Below are positions 1-26,784 of a stretch of DNA of 64,000 bases, one piece after another (the stretch's first letter is position 1; each line of letters opens with the position of its first letter). A program made the translations under genes and the position numbers. Under the pieces are notes generated by a model. It ran no database searches. It saw only the letters and a program-made list of their open reading frames with translations, and was not told the origin of the DNA. This DNA is from Candidatus Woesearchaeota archaeon (lineage in GTDB: Archaea > Nanobdellota > Nanobdellia > SCGC-AAA011-G17 > JACPIM01), in NCBI GenBank assembly GCA_016188045.1, contig JACPIM010000003.1, positions 181 through 64,180 on the forward strand, in the 5' to 3' direction.

Positions 1-96
1 AATGATATATCTAAGATAATGGCAGTTTTAAGGAAAGTTGAAGATTATCTGTATTTTGAAGCTGGAAAAGAAGAAGAGGTGAGTGATGATGAGTAA
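1..96 (+). CDS. 3' end of an upstream CDS (partial, unknown product)
   Basis: Open frame from base 1 ([31 protein letters not shown]) ending TAA at 94-96, overlapping the radA start. Confidence 0.5.
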
Positions 97-1132
97 GAAC
101 GTTGGCGAAGAAAAAATAATAAAGAAAGAGGAAAAAAAGGAAGCTTCTAGTAAAGAGGTTACCGAACAAGTTGTTGTTAAGAAAAAAGAAGAAATTAAGA
201 TTGATGAATTGCCTGGGGTTGGTGCTGCAACTGCTGAAAAATTAAGAGAGGCAGGATATACTACTTTGATGAGCTTGGCTGTTGCTAGTCCTGGTGAATT
301 AGTTGAAGTTTGTGCTATTGGAGAGGCGGTTGCCAAAAAAATAATTAACAATGCCAGAAGCAAATTAGATATGGGTTTTGAATCTGGTGAAGACTTATTG
401 AGGAAAAGGCTTAGCGTTATAAAAATAACTACGGGTTCAAAAGCGTTGGATGGTTTGTTTGGTGGTGGTATTGAAACTGGGGCTGTAACTGAAGTGTATG
501 GAGCTTATGGATCAGGAAAAACTTCTTTGGCGCATCAATTGGCTGTTAGTGTGCAGTTGCCAAAAGAAAAAGGTGGTGCAGATGGAATGGCCTTGTGGAT
601 AGATTCAGAAGGAACTCTAAGACCAGAATTCATAGAGAGAATTGCAAAGGTAAATGGTTTTGATCCTACTATAGCTTTGAAAAATTTTAGAGGCGCGAGA
701 GCCTTTAACAGTGATCATCAAATGCTAATGATTGAGAAAATAGAGGAATTGATAAAAGATCAGGGATTGCCAATAAAATTAGTAATTGTAGATTCGTTAA
801 TGAGCCATTTTCGCAGCGAATTCTCAGGGCGTTCGATGTTGGCAGACCGACAACAGAAATTAAATAGACATATTCACGAATTACTTAGATTAGCGCATAC
901 TTATGATATAGCGGTTTATGTTACTAATCAGGTTATGTCAAAGCCAGATACTTTTTTTGGTGACCCAACTGAAGCGATTGGAGGGCATGTATTGCATCAT
1001 GCTTCAACGTATAGGTGTTATTTGCGTAGAGGAAAAAAAGGAAGCAGGGTCGCTAAACTAGTTGATGCTCCTGCTATGCCTGAGGGTGAATGTATTTTTA
1101 TAGTTACTGATGGTGGTATAAAGGATGTATAG
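83..1132 (+). CDS. radA: DNA repair and recombination protein RadA
   Basis: N-terminal HhH ([15 protein letters not shown]), Walker [44 protein letters not shown]. Confidence 0.97.
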
Positions 1133-2141
1133 AACCCATACTTTGGAAGAGTATGAAGAGGTTATGAAGTTAAGTAAACAGGGACTGCGTCCTATTAAGA
1201 TTTTTTCTCTTTTATCAGAAATGGGATTTAGTGTAAGCTATGGTGCCTTATATGATTGGATCCATACAAATAAAAAACCGTTTCAGGATAAGGTACTAAG
1301 CAAAATTTCACAACAAAGTAATTTTTTAACAGAAGAAAAGGCTTATATTTTAGGTGTTTTATGTGGGGATGGTTACATAAGAATTCATAATTCAGGTAAT
1401 GGGTTTTTAGTGGGATTAGACGTATGTGATGAGGATTTTGCGGATGAATTTCGTAGATGTTTAAAGGAAGTTTATGGTCTTCTACCAAGTAAGAAAAAAA
1501 GAGAACTAGAATTTACAAATTTTTCTTTAAATCCAAAACCAAGATATGTTATAAATCTTACATCCAAATTGGTAGTGAAAGATTTATTGCAGTATTCTAA
1601 ATCCTTTAAGACTAAAGAATGGGAAGTCCCTGAAAAAATTTTAAGATCTAGTTCTAAAGTAAAATCTGCTTTTCTGAGGGGATTTTTTGATTCTGAAGGA
1701 AGTATTAGTTTAAAAAAACCATACGGAGTCTATCTATCTGTTTGTTCTGGAAATGAAACCCCATTACTTAAAATTAAGGAAGTATTAAAAAACGATTTTA
1801 ATATTGATCTATCGGTTGTTTATTCTAAATCTGTTACAAGATTAAAATCTTCCGGGTACAAAAATGTTAAGACTTTTTATGAAAATATTAATTTTACTAT
1901 CAAAAGAAAGCGAGATAAATTGGGAACTGGTTTGTTGACCTATAAGAGGAAAGGCGTAAGAAGGTATTCTCCTGAGTTTAAGATGAAAGCACTGGAACTA
2001 TTAGATAAACATAAGGATCCTCATATTGTTGCGAGTTTATTGGGCATTAATAGTGCAAATATATATGATTGGAAAAATGGTCGATATATCGGCAATATAA
2101 GAGTTGAGATATGTGGCAGAAGCAATATTTATGATAACTGA
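1125..2141 (+). CDS. Free-standing LAGLIDADG (intein/DOD-type) homing endonuclease with HTH-like termini
   Basis: Two LAGLIDADG motifs ([26 protein letters not shown]); HTH-like N-terminus; C-terminal [13 protein letters not shown]...[16 protein letters not shown]; no intein splicing motifs. Confidence 0.88.
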
Positions 2142-2166
2142 TAAGGGAATTAGAGATTTAGAATAA
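2116..2166 (+). pseudogene. Second, displaced copy of the radA 3' end
   Basis: Reads [16 protein letters not shown], aligning with the radA end [15 protein letters not shown]; no start codon upstream of the aligned segment. Confidence 0.8.
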
Positions 2167-2238
2167 TTTTTTTCTTTTTTAATCCTTAGAATTAACTTAA
2201 TGATCTTTTCTTAAGAATGAAATTCCTTTTTTTATTTC

Positions 2239-3156
2239 TTATAAATCATTGTCTTCCAATCTTTTAATCTTTTCTTGTAAGTCTATAACTAACCAAATCG
2301 CTGACGATATCAAAGTTCGTGCCCTTTCATTATCAACGTTTCCTAACTCTGGATGGCCTCCCTTATCCCTATCAAAAGAAAAAGACTTTAGTTTTGAAAA
2401 CTCTTCTTCATTGATAAATCTGTTTTTTAAGAATCCTATTTTATTGTTATAGCTATTATTTATAAATTCATCAAATTCTTCTTTGTTTATTTTATTATTT
2501 TTATTTAACTTTCTCAAACAATTATTAATTACTTTCTCAATGGTCCTACCAGCGCATAATACTGAAGTTTTTCCGAAACCAAACGAACTTATGTTTATTG
2601 CTTCTTTAATGTCTTTATGATAGTCTTTATTAATTTGATCTATCCCATCATAATTTTCTAATGAATTGAAATAATCAAGCAATACTTTCAAAGAGTCTGA
2701 GACCTTGCGACATTCAAAAGATAATTTTAATTTCAAATTCTCATTAGATAATTTTATAGATTGATCGCTTTCGGTAACGTTCTTAATTCTTTTTGTCATC
2801 AAAGAGCAAATATACTTTTCGTTAATCTTATCTATTCTTTTTGGAATTCCTAACTCGGCTAATATTTCAGTATTAATCTCTGATATGTTCTTGTTTATGG
2901 CGCAGATCTTTTTTTGTAGATCATTAACAAATCCTTTTTGTTTCTTAGTCGTTAAGTATTTTGATCTAAGTTCTTTTGATTCTCCGATTATACACTCTTG
3001 AAGACTCCTCATCATAACAAATTTGTTAACTCTCTCTAGCATATCACGAATTTCTAATCCTATACCTGATAATACCATTCCCAAAAGTACTGATGTATGT
3101 ATACTTACACCCCTTCTTTCTTTCTCTAATTTTTTGTTCATTTTACTACCTACCAT
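2239..3156 (-). CDS. Hypothetical protein with a C-terminal HEPN/DUF4145-like domain
   Basis: 305-aa ORF; C-terminal CAGRTIEKVI...DRDKGGH gives an Rx4H pattern in a helical context. Confidence 0.5.
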   Translation of the reverse strand: MVGSKMNKKLEKERRGVSIHTSVLLGMVLSGIGLEIRDMLERVNKFVMMRSLQECIIGESKELRSKYLTTKKQKGFVNDLQKKICAINKNISEINTEILAELGIPKRIDKINEKYICSLMTKRIKNVTESDQSIKLSNENLKLKLSFECRKVSDSLKVLLDYFNSLENYDGIDQINKDYHKDIKEAINISSFGFGKTSVLCAGRTIEKVINNCLRKLNKNNKINKEEFDEFINNSYNNKIGFLKNRFINEEEFSKLKSFSFDRDKGGHPELGNVDNERARTLISSAIWLVIDLQEKIKRLEDNDL

Positions 3157-3318
3157 AAAATTCTTCTTGAATTACCTTCATTATGGTCTCCAAGTTTAAG
3201 GGCTTTTTGGGGATCTGTGTTTAGGTACCCAACCATTTAGTTCAACTTCCTCCTCGTTCCTTGAACCATAAACTTCGTAATATTTGGTTTGTCTAGGAGA
3301 TTTAATCCTAAGGATAAA

Positions 3319-3439
3319 CGCCCCCACGAGGATTTGAACCTCGGTCTCAACCTTTTTGCTAAAAAGCCGCAAGGTCGAATTCTTACTGGTAATTAACCAT
3401 CAATTTAGGGTTAATAAATCCAGGCTAAACTATGGGGGC
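3319..3439 (-). tRNA. tRNA-Arg(GCG) with two BHB introns (left att copy)
   Basis: Acceptor GCCCCCA/TGGGGGC, T arm CGAGG-TTCAAAT-CCTCG; 34-nt D-loop intron (3384-3417, central helix CTGG/CCAG); 13-nt 37/38 intron (3354-3366, helix TTGC/GCAA); spliced loop TTGCGGA. Confidence 0.92.
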
Positions 3440-3458
3440 AATAAGAAACTATGTTTCT
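3320..3458. repeat. 139-bp direct repeat, left att site
   Basis: Identical by eye to 14712-14850. Confidence 0.95.
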
Positions 3459-3476
3459 ATTTTCTATGGCCTTATT

Positions 3477-3632
3477 ATGGTTAAAGTTCAAAGACATAAG
3501 AACGGATATTTTATATCAATACCAAAATCTAAAGCGAGGCTTATGGGATTAAACGGTGGAGAAGAATTTGATGTTGAATATGACAGGATAAATAAGAACT
3601 TGGTATTCATTTTGATTAATAATAAGGTGTGA
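3477..3632 (+). CDS. AbrB/MazE-like antitoxin
   Basis: MVKVQRHKNGYFISIPKSKARLMGLNGGEEFDV pattern; overlaps the PIN gene start. The track's upstream ATG lies inside the tRNA. Confidence 0.75.
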   Translation: MVKVQRHKNGYFISIPKSKARLMGLNGGEEFDVEYDRINKNLVFILINNKV

Positions 3633-4054
3633 TTAGTTTGGTAGAAAAATATTACGTCGATACTTCAATATGGATTGACCTTTATGAAGATAGGAAAGGC
3701 TATAATCAAGAGCCATTGGGAGATTTTGCCTTAGGATTATTTGCTTTGATAAGAGCAAAGAACAATAAATTAATTATTACGGATATTTTGATTAAAGAAT
3801 TAGAAATGAATTATTCTTTGGAAGAGATAAATGGAATGATCAAACCTTTTGAAGATATTATTGAAAAAATTATTAGTACAGGAAAACAACGTGAAGAAGC
3901 AAGAAATATTGCTAATAACAGGAATATACCTGCTGGAGATGTTTTACCTGCTATTATAGCAAGAGACCATAAACTGATTCTTATAACAAGAGACAATCAT
4001 TTTAAACAATTAGTGGATATTTCTGGATATTATAAACCAGAAGATATCATTTGA
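3629..4054 (+). CDS. PIN-domain (VapC-like) toxin
   Basis: YYVDTSIWID, IPAGDVL, LITRDNHF. Confidence 0.85.
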   Translation: MISLVEKYYVDTSIWIDLYEDRKGYNQEPLGDFALGLFALIRAKNNKLIITDILIKELEMNYSLEEINGMIKPFEDIIEKIISTGKQREEARNIANNRNIPAGDVLPAIIARDHKLILITRDNHFKQLVDISGYYKPEDII

Positions 4055-25740: not shown

Positions 25741-26784
25741 ATGAAAAAAATAAAAATTATACTGCTTTTAGTATTAATCTTAACTTTGTTAGTTGGATGT
25801 ACTAGTTTGCCTGGCTTGTCTTTTTTAGGTGGAAAACAGGATAAACCTGTAATAGGCAGAGGAATAAAAATGTATTTTATGCCTGGAGCTCCACCTACAG
25901 ATAAATTATTGATAGGTCAAGATTCAATTGCCTTAGTTAGAGTTGCAATTGAGAATTATGGGCCTGGTCTGAATGGAAATTTAAAATTTTGGGATAGTGT
26001 TCCTGGTGGTATAGAAGGGGATCGAGGAGTAGTTAGCGTTGGTGTAACTCTTAAAAATGGGGATACGATTCCAGATCAGAATACCGGTCAGATAATCAAG
26101 ATTGATCCTGATAGGGTTTTTTGTTCTCCTGATAGTGGAAGTTGTTCTTCAGATAATCCGAGTGGTACTGGAGAAGTTCAATATAATTTACAAAAGTTGA
26201 ACATTGTACCGGGTATGAAATTAAATGTTTTTGCTGAATTGGTTATAGATGATTACAACGTTGGAGGTGTTTGTGACCCTCGTGATGTAGGCAGTCAAAA
26301 TTCTGGGATACAAACTACTTTTTGTTTGAAAAGAGAAGCGGATACTAATGTTCCTTGTTCAAATCAAGAGATTATAACCTCAAGTAAATTAGGACAAGTT
26401 GCAAGTTATGTTCCTGTTACGGTTGATAGAATTGAAAAAACCGCAACACCAATAAGTAATGATCGTTTTTTTGTTACCTTGAAAATTGTTTTAAAAAATT
26501 TAGGTGGAGGTGAAATCGTTGATGATCTAACTGGTAAAAAGGATTTTTTAAAAAACTTTAAAATTTTAGTTGATGGTACTGATGCTGATAGGGTTTGTTC
26601 CCCAAATGCTGGTCAATTAGTATTTAATAATAACGAAGCAGTAATAAATTGTGCCATAAAAGATCTTACAGCTGGTCAAAGTTTTACTGATCATACTTTG
26701 AAGATATGTTATAGTTTTCCTTATAGACTTAGGATAAAAGCAGGACCAATACCTTTATCAGTGATAGAAAACAAGCAAGTTTAA
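25741..26784 (+). CDS. Lipoprotein (unknown function)
   Basis: Signal peptide with LLVGC lipobox. Confidence 0.75.
   Translation: MKKIKIILLLVLILTLLVGCTSLPGLSFLGGKQDKPVIGRGIKMYFMPGAPPTDKLLIGQDSIALVRVAIENYGPGLNGNLKFWDSVPGGIEGDRGVVSVGVTLKNGDTIPDQNTGQIIKIDPDRVFCSPDSGSCSSDNPSGTGEVQYNLQKLNIVPGMKLNVFAELVIDDYNVGGVCDPRDVGSQNSGIQTTFCLKREADTNVPCSNQEIITSSKLGQVASYVPVTVDRIEKTATPISNDRFFVTLKIVLKNLGGGEIVDDLTGKKDFLKNFKILVDGTDADRVCSPNAGQLVFNNNEAVINCAIKDLTAGQSFTDHTLKICYSFPYRLRIKAGPIPLSVIENKQV

Follow-up and report, generated by a model that had tools for sequence, protein, structure and literature searches.

Free-standing homing endonucleases of T-even bacteriophages (seg, mob) spread by intronless homing, in which a double-strand break is repaired with co-conversion of flanking markers, and the invaded genome is protected by differences in its target sequence, not by splitting of the site. 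These phage enzymes are mostly of the GIY-YIG or HNH type, lie between genes, and come without a replacement gene end or an orphaned one. Archaeal RadA inteins, such as that of Pyrococcus horikoshii, use the recombinase gene radA as their host and contain an endonuclease domain of the LAGLIDADG_3 class. In this paper we analyse a 64,000-nucleotide (nt) stretch of DNA from a Candidatus Woesearchaeota archaeon (assembly GCA_016188045.1, contig JACPIM010000003.1, positions 181 to 64,180 of the forward strand), referred to as the window, in which a complete radA gene is followed by the gene of a free-standing LAGLIDADG homing endonuclease and then by a second radA end. We propose, with a probability of roughly three in four, that the locus is a homing cassette of the mORF type, a kind of element described from fungal mitochondria, in an archaeal chromosome, and that its mobile unit consists of the working end of radA (U) and the endonuclease gene. 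The second end is called the orphan (O). The evidence is comparative: the anatomy of the locus, its linkage to radA, its patchy distribution, purifying selection on the endonuclease, the decay of the orphan, the identity of the orphan with the radA end of a relative, and the apparent linkage of U to the endonuclease.

The mORFs have been reported from Allomyces macrogynus atp6, Rhizopus atp9, Mortierella cox2, and Glomus atp6, atp9, cox2 and nad3 (PMC3630166). As at the radA locus, the 3' part of an essential protein gene contains a free-standing gene of the LAGLIDADG (or GIY-YIG) type, the host protein is completed by an inserted C-terminus while the displaced one lies about 1 kb downstream, the protein is kept despite many nucleotide differences, and gains and losses are repeated (PMC3630166). 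In both cases the displaced end is closer to the ends of relatives than the inserted one, with identities of 91-98% versus 64-81% in Glomus and 98% versus 60% here (PMC3630166). The inserted C-terminus of Glomus was called foreign, and atp6 and cox2 mRNA gave no sign of the native one (PMC3630166). According to the review text of the same paper, an endonuclease has been shown biochemically to drive the mobility of an mORF element (PMC3630166).

The radA locus differs from the mORFs in several respects. It lies in the chromosome of a DPANN archaeon and not in an organelle, its target is the recombinase on which homology-directed repair, and presumably homing, depends, and its endonuclease is encoded by a separate open reading frame (ORF) with overlapping stop and start (GATGTATAG), whereas in Glomus atp6 and nad3 the two are fused in phase (PMC3630166). 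The enzyme is of the intein-type LAGLIDADG_3 class with a helix-turn-helix (HTH) domain at each end, the gene differs over about 700 nt from the empty sister allele, and the family is large and includes a sister subfamily located at a class-II aminoacyl-tRNA synthetase gene, probably aspS. With the T-even phage endonucleases the proposed cassette would share the lack of an intron or intein, spread by double-strand-break repair with co-conversion, and protection by target sequence differences, but here the host is cellular and the insertion lies inside a coding sequence. With the RadA inteins it shares the host gene and the domain class, but the endonuclease is without a splicing domain and is not in frame in RadA, whose function is kept by duplication of the gene end at the DNA level.

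The architecture is already known in kind from fungal mitochondria, where alone a limited literature search found it documented; no description of such an element from archaea, radA or DPANN genomes was found in the limited open-access literature, which is weak evidence of absence. An earlier note on the window, made by a model from the sequence alone, had stated that free-standing homing endonuclease genes are known mainly from phages, and this understates the fungal-mitochondrial precedent (PMC3630166).

Organisation of the radA locus

The radA gene covers positions 2-315 of the 316 of NF003301 and 2-311 of the 311 of TIGR02236 and has its own stop (TAG 1130-1132, final codons GAT GTA TAG), so that RadA is intact without an intron or intein, as the earlier note had supposed of a substitute C-terminus. 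The ATG of the endonuclease (1125-1127) lies within the GATGTA of radA, giving an ORF overlap of 8 nt (Table 1). Because this start falls within the last two radA codons, the endonuclease is probably translated by coupling to radA.

The second radA end, which the same note had correctly placed at 2116-2166 in another frame than the endonuclease, is real and not a chance match. It is cut off from radA by a stop and by 1 kb of sequence, and its frame is a different one. We built a profile of RadA ends from 22 endonuclease-free alleles and searched it against all 4114 six-frame fragments of the window; O scored 32.1 bits (E=1.4e-8) and was outscored only by radA itself. Frame 1 of this region has a stop at 2098-2100 and then reads through to the closing TAA, and homology to genuine RadA ends begins at the Glu codon at 2119. 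U and O have 8 of 15 residues in common, and 17 of 45 nt differ between them, 9 at third codon positions. The alignment of the endonuclease family stops at residue 323 (nt 2093), and the last 15 codons of the endonuclease ORF consist of the spacer and then of the second radA end read out of frame. The spacer is present in decayed form at the related loci L114 and L115.

Two further candidates were rejected. A third RadA-end-like match (26724-26780, minus strand, FSITDKGIG, E=0.003) runs antisense inside an unrelated ORF (25741-26784) and was judged a chance match. An extension of the orphan upstream of its Glu codon (GKMVD versus AKMVD of RadA) was indistinguishable from chance, and it may be either that or a trace of an older, longer orphan; at 2061-2085 the DWKNGRY codons, read in the +1 frame, give IGKMVDI, which resembles the AKMVD just upstream of the RadA end.

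Table 1. Features of the radA locus in the window (+ strand), followed by the orphan ends of related loci.
Feature	Position	Strand	Remarks
radA, complete recombinase gene	83-1132	+	349 amino acids; helix-hairpin-helix (HhH) domain and Rad51/RecA ATPase core; PF08423, 4.8e-84
radA 5' part (HhH domain and linker)	170-409	+	212/235 (90%) identical to empty sister allele L197
radA ATPase core	410-1087	+	485/676 (~72%) identical to L197; exchanged in one of the two alleles
U, working radA end, invariant Glu codon to TAG	1088-1132	+	starts GAA TGT ATT TTT; 27/45 identical to L197 end
Free-standing single-chain LAGLIDADG homing endonuclease gene	1125-2141	+	338 amino acids; start overlaps last two radA codons
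LAGLIDADG motif 1	1350-1376	+	LGVLCGDGY, residues 76-84; G81, D82 and G83 invariant in 34 family members
LAGLIDADG motif 2	1674-1700	+	LRGFFDSEG, residues 184-192; D189, S190 and E191 invariant in 34 family members
Spacer, conserved endonuclease end (WKNGRYIG) to orphan	2094-2118	+	endonuclease ORF reads through out of frame
O, orphan radA end	2119-2166	+	48 nt; unattached to any radA body; TAA 2164-2166
T-run and short inverted repeat, terminator-like	2167-2196	+	follows the orphan, as it follows radA in L197
Orphan of L114			48 nt
Orphan of L057			45 nt
Orphan of L115			41 nt; 7-nt deletion and stop
Orphan of L195			30 nt
Orphan of L035			27 nt
Orphan of L119			~18 nt
Orphan of L118			15 nt
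Orphan of L120			12 nt
L116 and several others			no orphan

An uninterrupted relative ends in the orphan sequence

The earlier note had named, beforehand and as a refutation test, an alignment with relatives that are free of the endonuclease. A search for the orphan-type end among 120 close RadA homologues found the protein P0133, encoded on a metagenomic contig (L197) whose radA is uninterrupted and without an endonuclease gene. The end of this RadA is the orphan exactly (16/16 residues), and the test thus came out in favour of the note. At the nucleotide level O and the L197 end agree at 47 of 48 positions, and at 61 of 62 when the terminator is included (window 2119-2180 versus L197 4024-4085), whereas the working end of the window agrees with it at only 27 of 45. 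L197 is a close relative. Its upstream genes are 89-90% identical to those of genomes G000 and G003; identity to the other two genomes of the genus is 72-80%. Among 240 genomes of the order, no other orphan copy above 82% identity was found outside the window's own genus, and the metagenomic contig L197 was the sole source of the donor type.

The radA genes of the window and of L197 (L197:3001-4071) are 90% identical up to nt 409 of the window, after which identity drops sharply to about 72% over the ATPase core. The break falls at the end of a conserved 10-residue block. What separates the two alleles is a single replaced block (window 410-2118) with the Glu codon as its right edge, and this is the structure left by homing with a long co-conversion tract.

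Provenance of the orphan

Comparison with L114 indicates that the parts of the locus have different ages. Synonymous divergence (dS) between the window and L114 is 0.18 in the endonuclease gene (1125-2093) and 0.67 in the radA core (410-1087), and in every pair of loci compared the endonuclease gene was 1.6-3.8 times less diverged at synonymous sites than the adjacent core. The orphan of L114 has 4 non-synonymous and 0 synonymous changes relative to that of the window; at the divergence of the core, the chance of finding no synonymous change in its 12 conserved codons is 0.001-0.008. The lack of synonymous change, together with the low dS of the endonuclease gene, argues that the orphan moved with the endonuclease gene inside the species group. 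Most likely, the orphan of the window was co-converted with the right flank, the donor being an allele of the same species group that had already been invaded. Co-conversion of flanking markers, here presumably the 50 nt to the right of the cut, is usual during homing. The displaced end would then be the resident end in the founding event, of the type that still works in L197.

This modifies the idea, put forward in the earlier note, that an approximately 1-kb cassette had orphaned the original end of the gene. A displaced radA end does lie behind the endonuclease; in the window it was probably co-converted and is not the lineage's own, and the exchange can reach far upstream (410-1087).

Orphans across the family

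Duplicated ends at other junctions between radA and a LAGLIDADG gene, for which the note had suggested a search, recur in the family, and many loci retain orphan remnants. These were located behind the endonuclease gene and anchored on the former radA stop. In the clade of the window and in L057, whose endonucleases are 41% identical, the orphan has its start at one and the same Glu codon, which is invariant and lies 16 codons ahead of the stop. Over eight loci, differences between working and orphan ends fall at first, second and third codon positions in the proportion 36:33:61. In L057, 12 of 15 residues are kept over 18 nt changes, including two serine switches between TCN and AGY codons (TCC/AGC). 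The excess of third-position differences and the kept residues argue that working and orphan ends are diverged functional alleles, and not a duplicate that decayed in place. In L057, L048, L122, L195 and L119 the orphan is fused in frame as a C-terminal tail of the endonuclease.

Apparent linkage of the working end to the endonuclease

The working end appears to be a module linked to the cassette. Between the window and L114, U is identical at 43 of 45 positions where the adjacent radA is 88% identical, and between the window and L194 it is identical at 42 of 45 (93%), flanked by 74% in the adjacent 285 nt of radA and by 76% in the endonuclease gene. The junction E-C-I-F occurs in 8 of the 11 invaded alleles of this endonuclease clade, in at least 4 RadA lineages, versus 0 of 27 empty alleles (p=3e-6, a figure that ignores shared ancestry). 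The codon after Glu is GCA in 10 of the 27 empty alleles and in all well-preserved orphans, and in none of the 11 invaded alleles, a count to which the same restriction applies; where Ala is retained in invaded alleles (three cases), it is encoded by GCG, GCT and GCC. It is at this very codon that the filled allele L119 departs from its empty sister L013 (GAG GCG versus GAG GCA). The confinement of E-C-I-F to invaded alleles and the absence of GCA from them suggest that the Glu-Ala junction is what the enzyme recognises, and that U is a variant resistant to it. A substitute end linked to the endonuclease had been anticipated in the earlier note as a recoded copy; the linkage appears to hold, and the end itself looks like a natural allelic variant and not like a purpose-made one.

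The L057 lineage offers a second example. About 100 of 120 relatives have the O-type end (EGEASFYVE), and the U-type (ESECSFYVE) is found only in L057 and its seven closest relatives. The orphan of L057 matches the end of the empty allele L232 at 36 of 41 positions, the first 21 of 21 being identical, including an AGC serine codon, and its working end matches that of the empty allele L231 at 47 of 48. Identity among the radA bodies of these three alleles is 85-90%, and the swap is confined to the last 60-90 nt.

The endonuclease

The endonuclease matches PF14528 (LAGLIDADG_3, intein type) with 50.4 bits against a cut-off of 22.5 and also contains an HTH. No Hint or splicing domain was found in its ORF by the domain search, and the N-terminus of the AlphaFold2 model is a helical HTH; the description of the enzyme as intein-type without a splicing domain thus holds. 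A family profile searched against the PDB had PI-PfuI as its best sequence match (E=1e-7), and the single sequence gave weak WhiA matches only. The AlphaFold2 model has a predicted local distance difference test score (pLDDT) of 86, falling below 50 for residues 324-338, and contains a duplicated alpha-beta-beta-alpha-beta-beta-alpha fold. In a Foldseek search with this model, I-DmoI was matched with a template modelling score of 0.72-0.74, and PI-PfuI, I-SceI and the TliVMA intein endonuclease at E values of about 1e-8.

The predicted two-domain fold, with two LAGLIDADG helices and their acidic residues, is shared with I-DmoI, PI-PfuI and I-SceI; the window enzyme differs from these in sequence (15-18% identity) and in additional helical HTH domains, which the predicted structure places over the N-terminal ~65 and the C-terminal ~50 residues. 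It is a single-chain, two-motif LAGLIDADG protein with both catalytic motifs intact, and its predicted cleavage site spans the Glu codon that lies 16 codons ahead of the radA stop. Its ratio of non-synonymous to synonymous divergence (dN/dS) is 0.10-0.20, from which the gene is judged to be under purifying selection.

Distribution and mobility of the family

Protein and locus searches found about 55 relatives of the endonuclease with at least 40% identity, all from genomes of the Woesearchaeota/Nanoarchaeota type. Every one of these with enough flanking sequence sits immediately 3' of radA (about 35 loci, 33 of them in one survey), and no radA was found directly upstream among the more distant relatives. 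In the closest clade the ATG of the endonuclease always overlaps the final Asp-Val codons of radA, and in a clade of ~42% identity the two genes are separated by a spacer of 40-125 nt.

Invaded alleles are scattered over the RadA tree, and strongly supported branches force at least 6 changes. Within the order, the endonuclease gene is present in 11 of 240 species genomes, across 7 families. Degenerate copies, truncated or with internal stops, were found in G011, G014 and L193. The filled locus L119 differs from the empty L013 by a 972-nt insertion that holds the endonuclease gene alone, with 38 of 41 identical positions in the downstream flank. The scattered invaded alleles, the degenerate copies and the low dN/dS are what one would expect of a homing endonuclease gene with a cycle of invasion, decay and loss.

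A related subfamily on a synthetase gene

The distant relatives of the endonuclease were screened for a duplicated end of whichever gene lies upstream. A sister subfamily, 34-40% identical to the window enzyme, is placed after a class-II aminoacyl-tRNA synthetase gene of the Pfam Asp/Lys/Asn family (PF00152 and an OB anticodon-binding domain), which from its C-terminal motif we take to be probably aspS. Behind these endonucleases lies an orphan made up of the last 13-38 synthetase codons (L049:856-3375; L066, L169, L175, L179, L180). The orphan of L049 has at least 30 residues, and its nucleotide identity to the working end is 69%, the differences falling 5:3:20 by codon position; in the other five loci the orphan, FPRDRDRLTP*, is fused in frame to the endonuclease. 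These synthetase orphans argue that the same gene-end strategy is used on a second essential gene.

Proposed mechanism

The position of the cut, the resistance of U and the route of repair are predicted from the sequence comparisons. The enzyme would cut endonuclease-free radA just 5' of the Glu codon, 16 codons before the stop, and sensitive alleles would typically read GAR GCA ATH TTT at the cut. Repair would copy U and the endonuclease gene from the invaded allele, RadA would stay intact, and the sequence 3' of the cut would remain as the untranslated orphan O. Co-conversion of the left flank would be absent or, with divergent alleles, extend up to ~700 nt; on the right it would take in O and the terminator T-run.

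Several of our findings weigh against this proposal. The radA core of the window is typical of the genus (76% of nucleotides and 82% of residues identical to G002), and it is the core of L197 that is an outlier without a close relative. L197 may therefore itself be recombinant, such as an allele that was cured and now uses the orphan again: recombination between U and O would have removed U together with the endonuclease gene, and the odd core would be the co-conversion tract of an earlier visit. The mechanism that made the orphan is the one given in the earlier note under either history of L197. The radA core is older than both the endonuclease gene and the orphan, and the orphan is probably a co-converted copy and not the allele's own former end. 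The length of the orphan varies from 48 nt to ~12 nt to none, which requires later deletions. Averaged over lineages, there is no co-conversion signal in the last 90 nt of radA, and the E-C-I-F and GCA statistics are subject to the effect of shared ancestry already given. Finally, four endonuclease-free alleles (L231, L241-L243) bear the U-type end of L057. We regard these as cured alleles that have retained the imported end; the alternative is that U is native there and O a passenger, and it is mainly because of this alternative that our confidence in the cassette is not higher.

Alternative explanations

The next best account, which we consider improbable, is that the endonuclease gene was inserted at or just after the radA stop, that U was always the host's own, and that the orphan is an inert relic of one ancient accident, unrelated to the cut site. 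This would agree with the averaged result for the last 90 nt of radA and with the movement of the endonuclease gene and orphan as a unit in the species group of the window. L057 could likewise be a simple 1.1-kb insertion, as four empty alleles share its U-type end and flank. U also tracks the lineage of the RadA body in the pairs L119/L013, L017/L022 and L118/L021; the argument that this agreement with the RadA tree makes U native was dropped as decisive, since the core is exchangeable with U and the donor is as a rule a close relative. A relic of the age of the family, whose endonucleases are down to 40% identical, should have been obliterated, yet intact orphans, each with the signature of its own host lineage, persist in three distant subfamilies (window, L057, L195), and the orphan of the window is identical at 47 of 48 nt to the working end of a living relative. 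Nor would such an insertion account for U as an island of 93% identity between 74% and 76% in the comparison of the window with L194, for the restriction of E-C-I-F to invaded alleles (p=3e-6, with the same reservation as above), or for the shared Glu codon that marks the left edge of the orphan in subfamilies of 41% identity.

Site-specific integration is much less credible. Here the duplicated radA end would be the att-type repeat of a tyrosine or serine recombinase, and the endonuclease gene its cargo. The 3' end of radA does act as a hot spot, with further inserts and duplicated ends in L019 and G080, and a tyrosine recombinase gene lies 3' of the endonuclease gene in L116 and L044. This XerC/D-like gene (L116:2846-3688) was rejected as a part of the element and is probably a host neighbour: it adjoins radA in the empty loci L016 and L005 too, and it is missing from most invaded loci. 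Moreover, the 972-nt insertion that distinguishes L119 from L013 holds the endonuclease gene only, U and O are allelic variants of ~60% identity and not identical core repeats, and the strict pairing of the endonuclease with radA (in the sister subfamily with the synthetase gene, probably aspS) is a prediction of target-specific homing.

A degenerate RadA intein that no longer splices, or a domesticated LAGLIDADG/HTH regulator of the WhiA type co-expressed with radA, could be imagined from the intein-type domain (PF14528) with PI-PfuI as its top PDB sequence match, the RadA inteins common in relatives, the HTH domains at both protein ends with weak WhiA matches, and the orphans read in frame as endonuclease tails (L057, L048, L122, L195, L119), but it is scarcely tenable, given that no Hint or splicing blocks were found, that radA has its own stop and the ORF its own start, that the RadA inteins here lie at other sites (~residues 145, 180 and 307), that both catalytic motifs are intact, and that patchiness, degenerate copies and orphan remnants mark a selfish element and not a conserved host function.

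Implications for radA and its lineages

With the cassette as we propose it, the comparative evidence indicates that homing endonucleases can colonise essential archaeal chromosomal genes without an intron or intein, by duplication of the gene end. A concrete target site and a resistance determinant are predicted for a new LAGLIDADG specificity, and the enzyme is a potential meganuclease scaffold. RadA is a common phylogenetic marker, and the mosaic radA described here, with a break at nt 409 and swapped ends, means that trees of these lineages should be read with care. Recent gene flow between uncultivated DPANN lineages could also be dated by comparison of orphan with living ends.

A wider proposition, for which we see the arguments as evenly balanced, is that DPANN and other archaea harbour active, undescribed chromosomal cassettes that replace gene ends. 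The family would then occupy at least two essential genes, radA and a class-II synthetase gene (probably aspS), with immunity conferred through one or two codons by the cut (a change of GCA into TGY or a different Ala codon). With each invasion and loss, as much as two-thirds of radA would be exchanged between lineages, cured alleles would reuse either end, and the phylogeny of radA would be written in part by a parasite that needs this very recombinase to spread.

Other inserts and neighbouring genes

RadA inteins occur in this order in G004, G006, G008, G015, G023, G034, G037 and G080, at no fewer than three sites (at least those near residues 145, 180 and 307), and L041 has a RadA intein and a downstream endonuclease gene together. 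In an endonuclease-free radA of G024 (L019:2401-3532), an insert of ~1 kb with a Bro-N-like ORF (2550-3161) is bracketed by a near-identical repeat of ~70 nt of the radA 3' end; just ahead of the second copy of this repeat lies an internal tandem duplication of 70 nt. In G080 (L240:699-3187; contig C29, minus strand), the radA gene contains an intein and has behind it an AbrB/PIN pair of the VapBC-like type and then a frameshifted, decayed radA 3' fragment of ~240 nt; here a duplicated radA end accompanies a third type of cargo.

At L194 (1270-1400) the endonuclease gene borders at its 3' end on a tRNA gene of the opposite strand, whose acceptor stem, when translated in the ORF, gives LDAPA and mimics a RadA fragment. 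A long orphan in P0009 was ruled out, the LDAPA being this acceptor stem.

Homology of the window to L114 stops at 2189 and to L115 at 2183, some 20 nt past the stop of the orphan, and the downstream genes differ among all four related genomes. In the window, the orphan is followed by a 305-amino-acid ORF without known function (2239-3156, minus strand) and by an AbrB/PIN pair (3432-4054).

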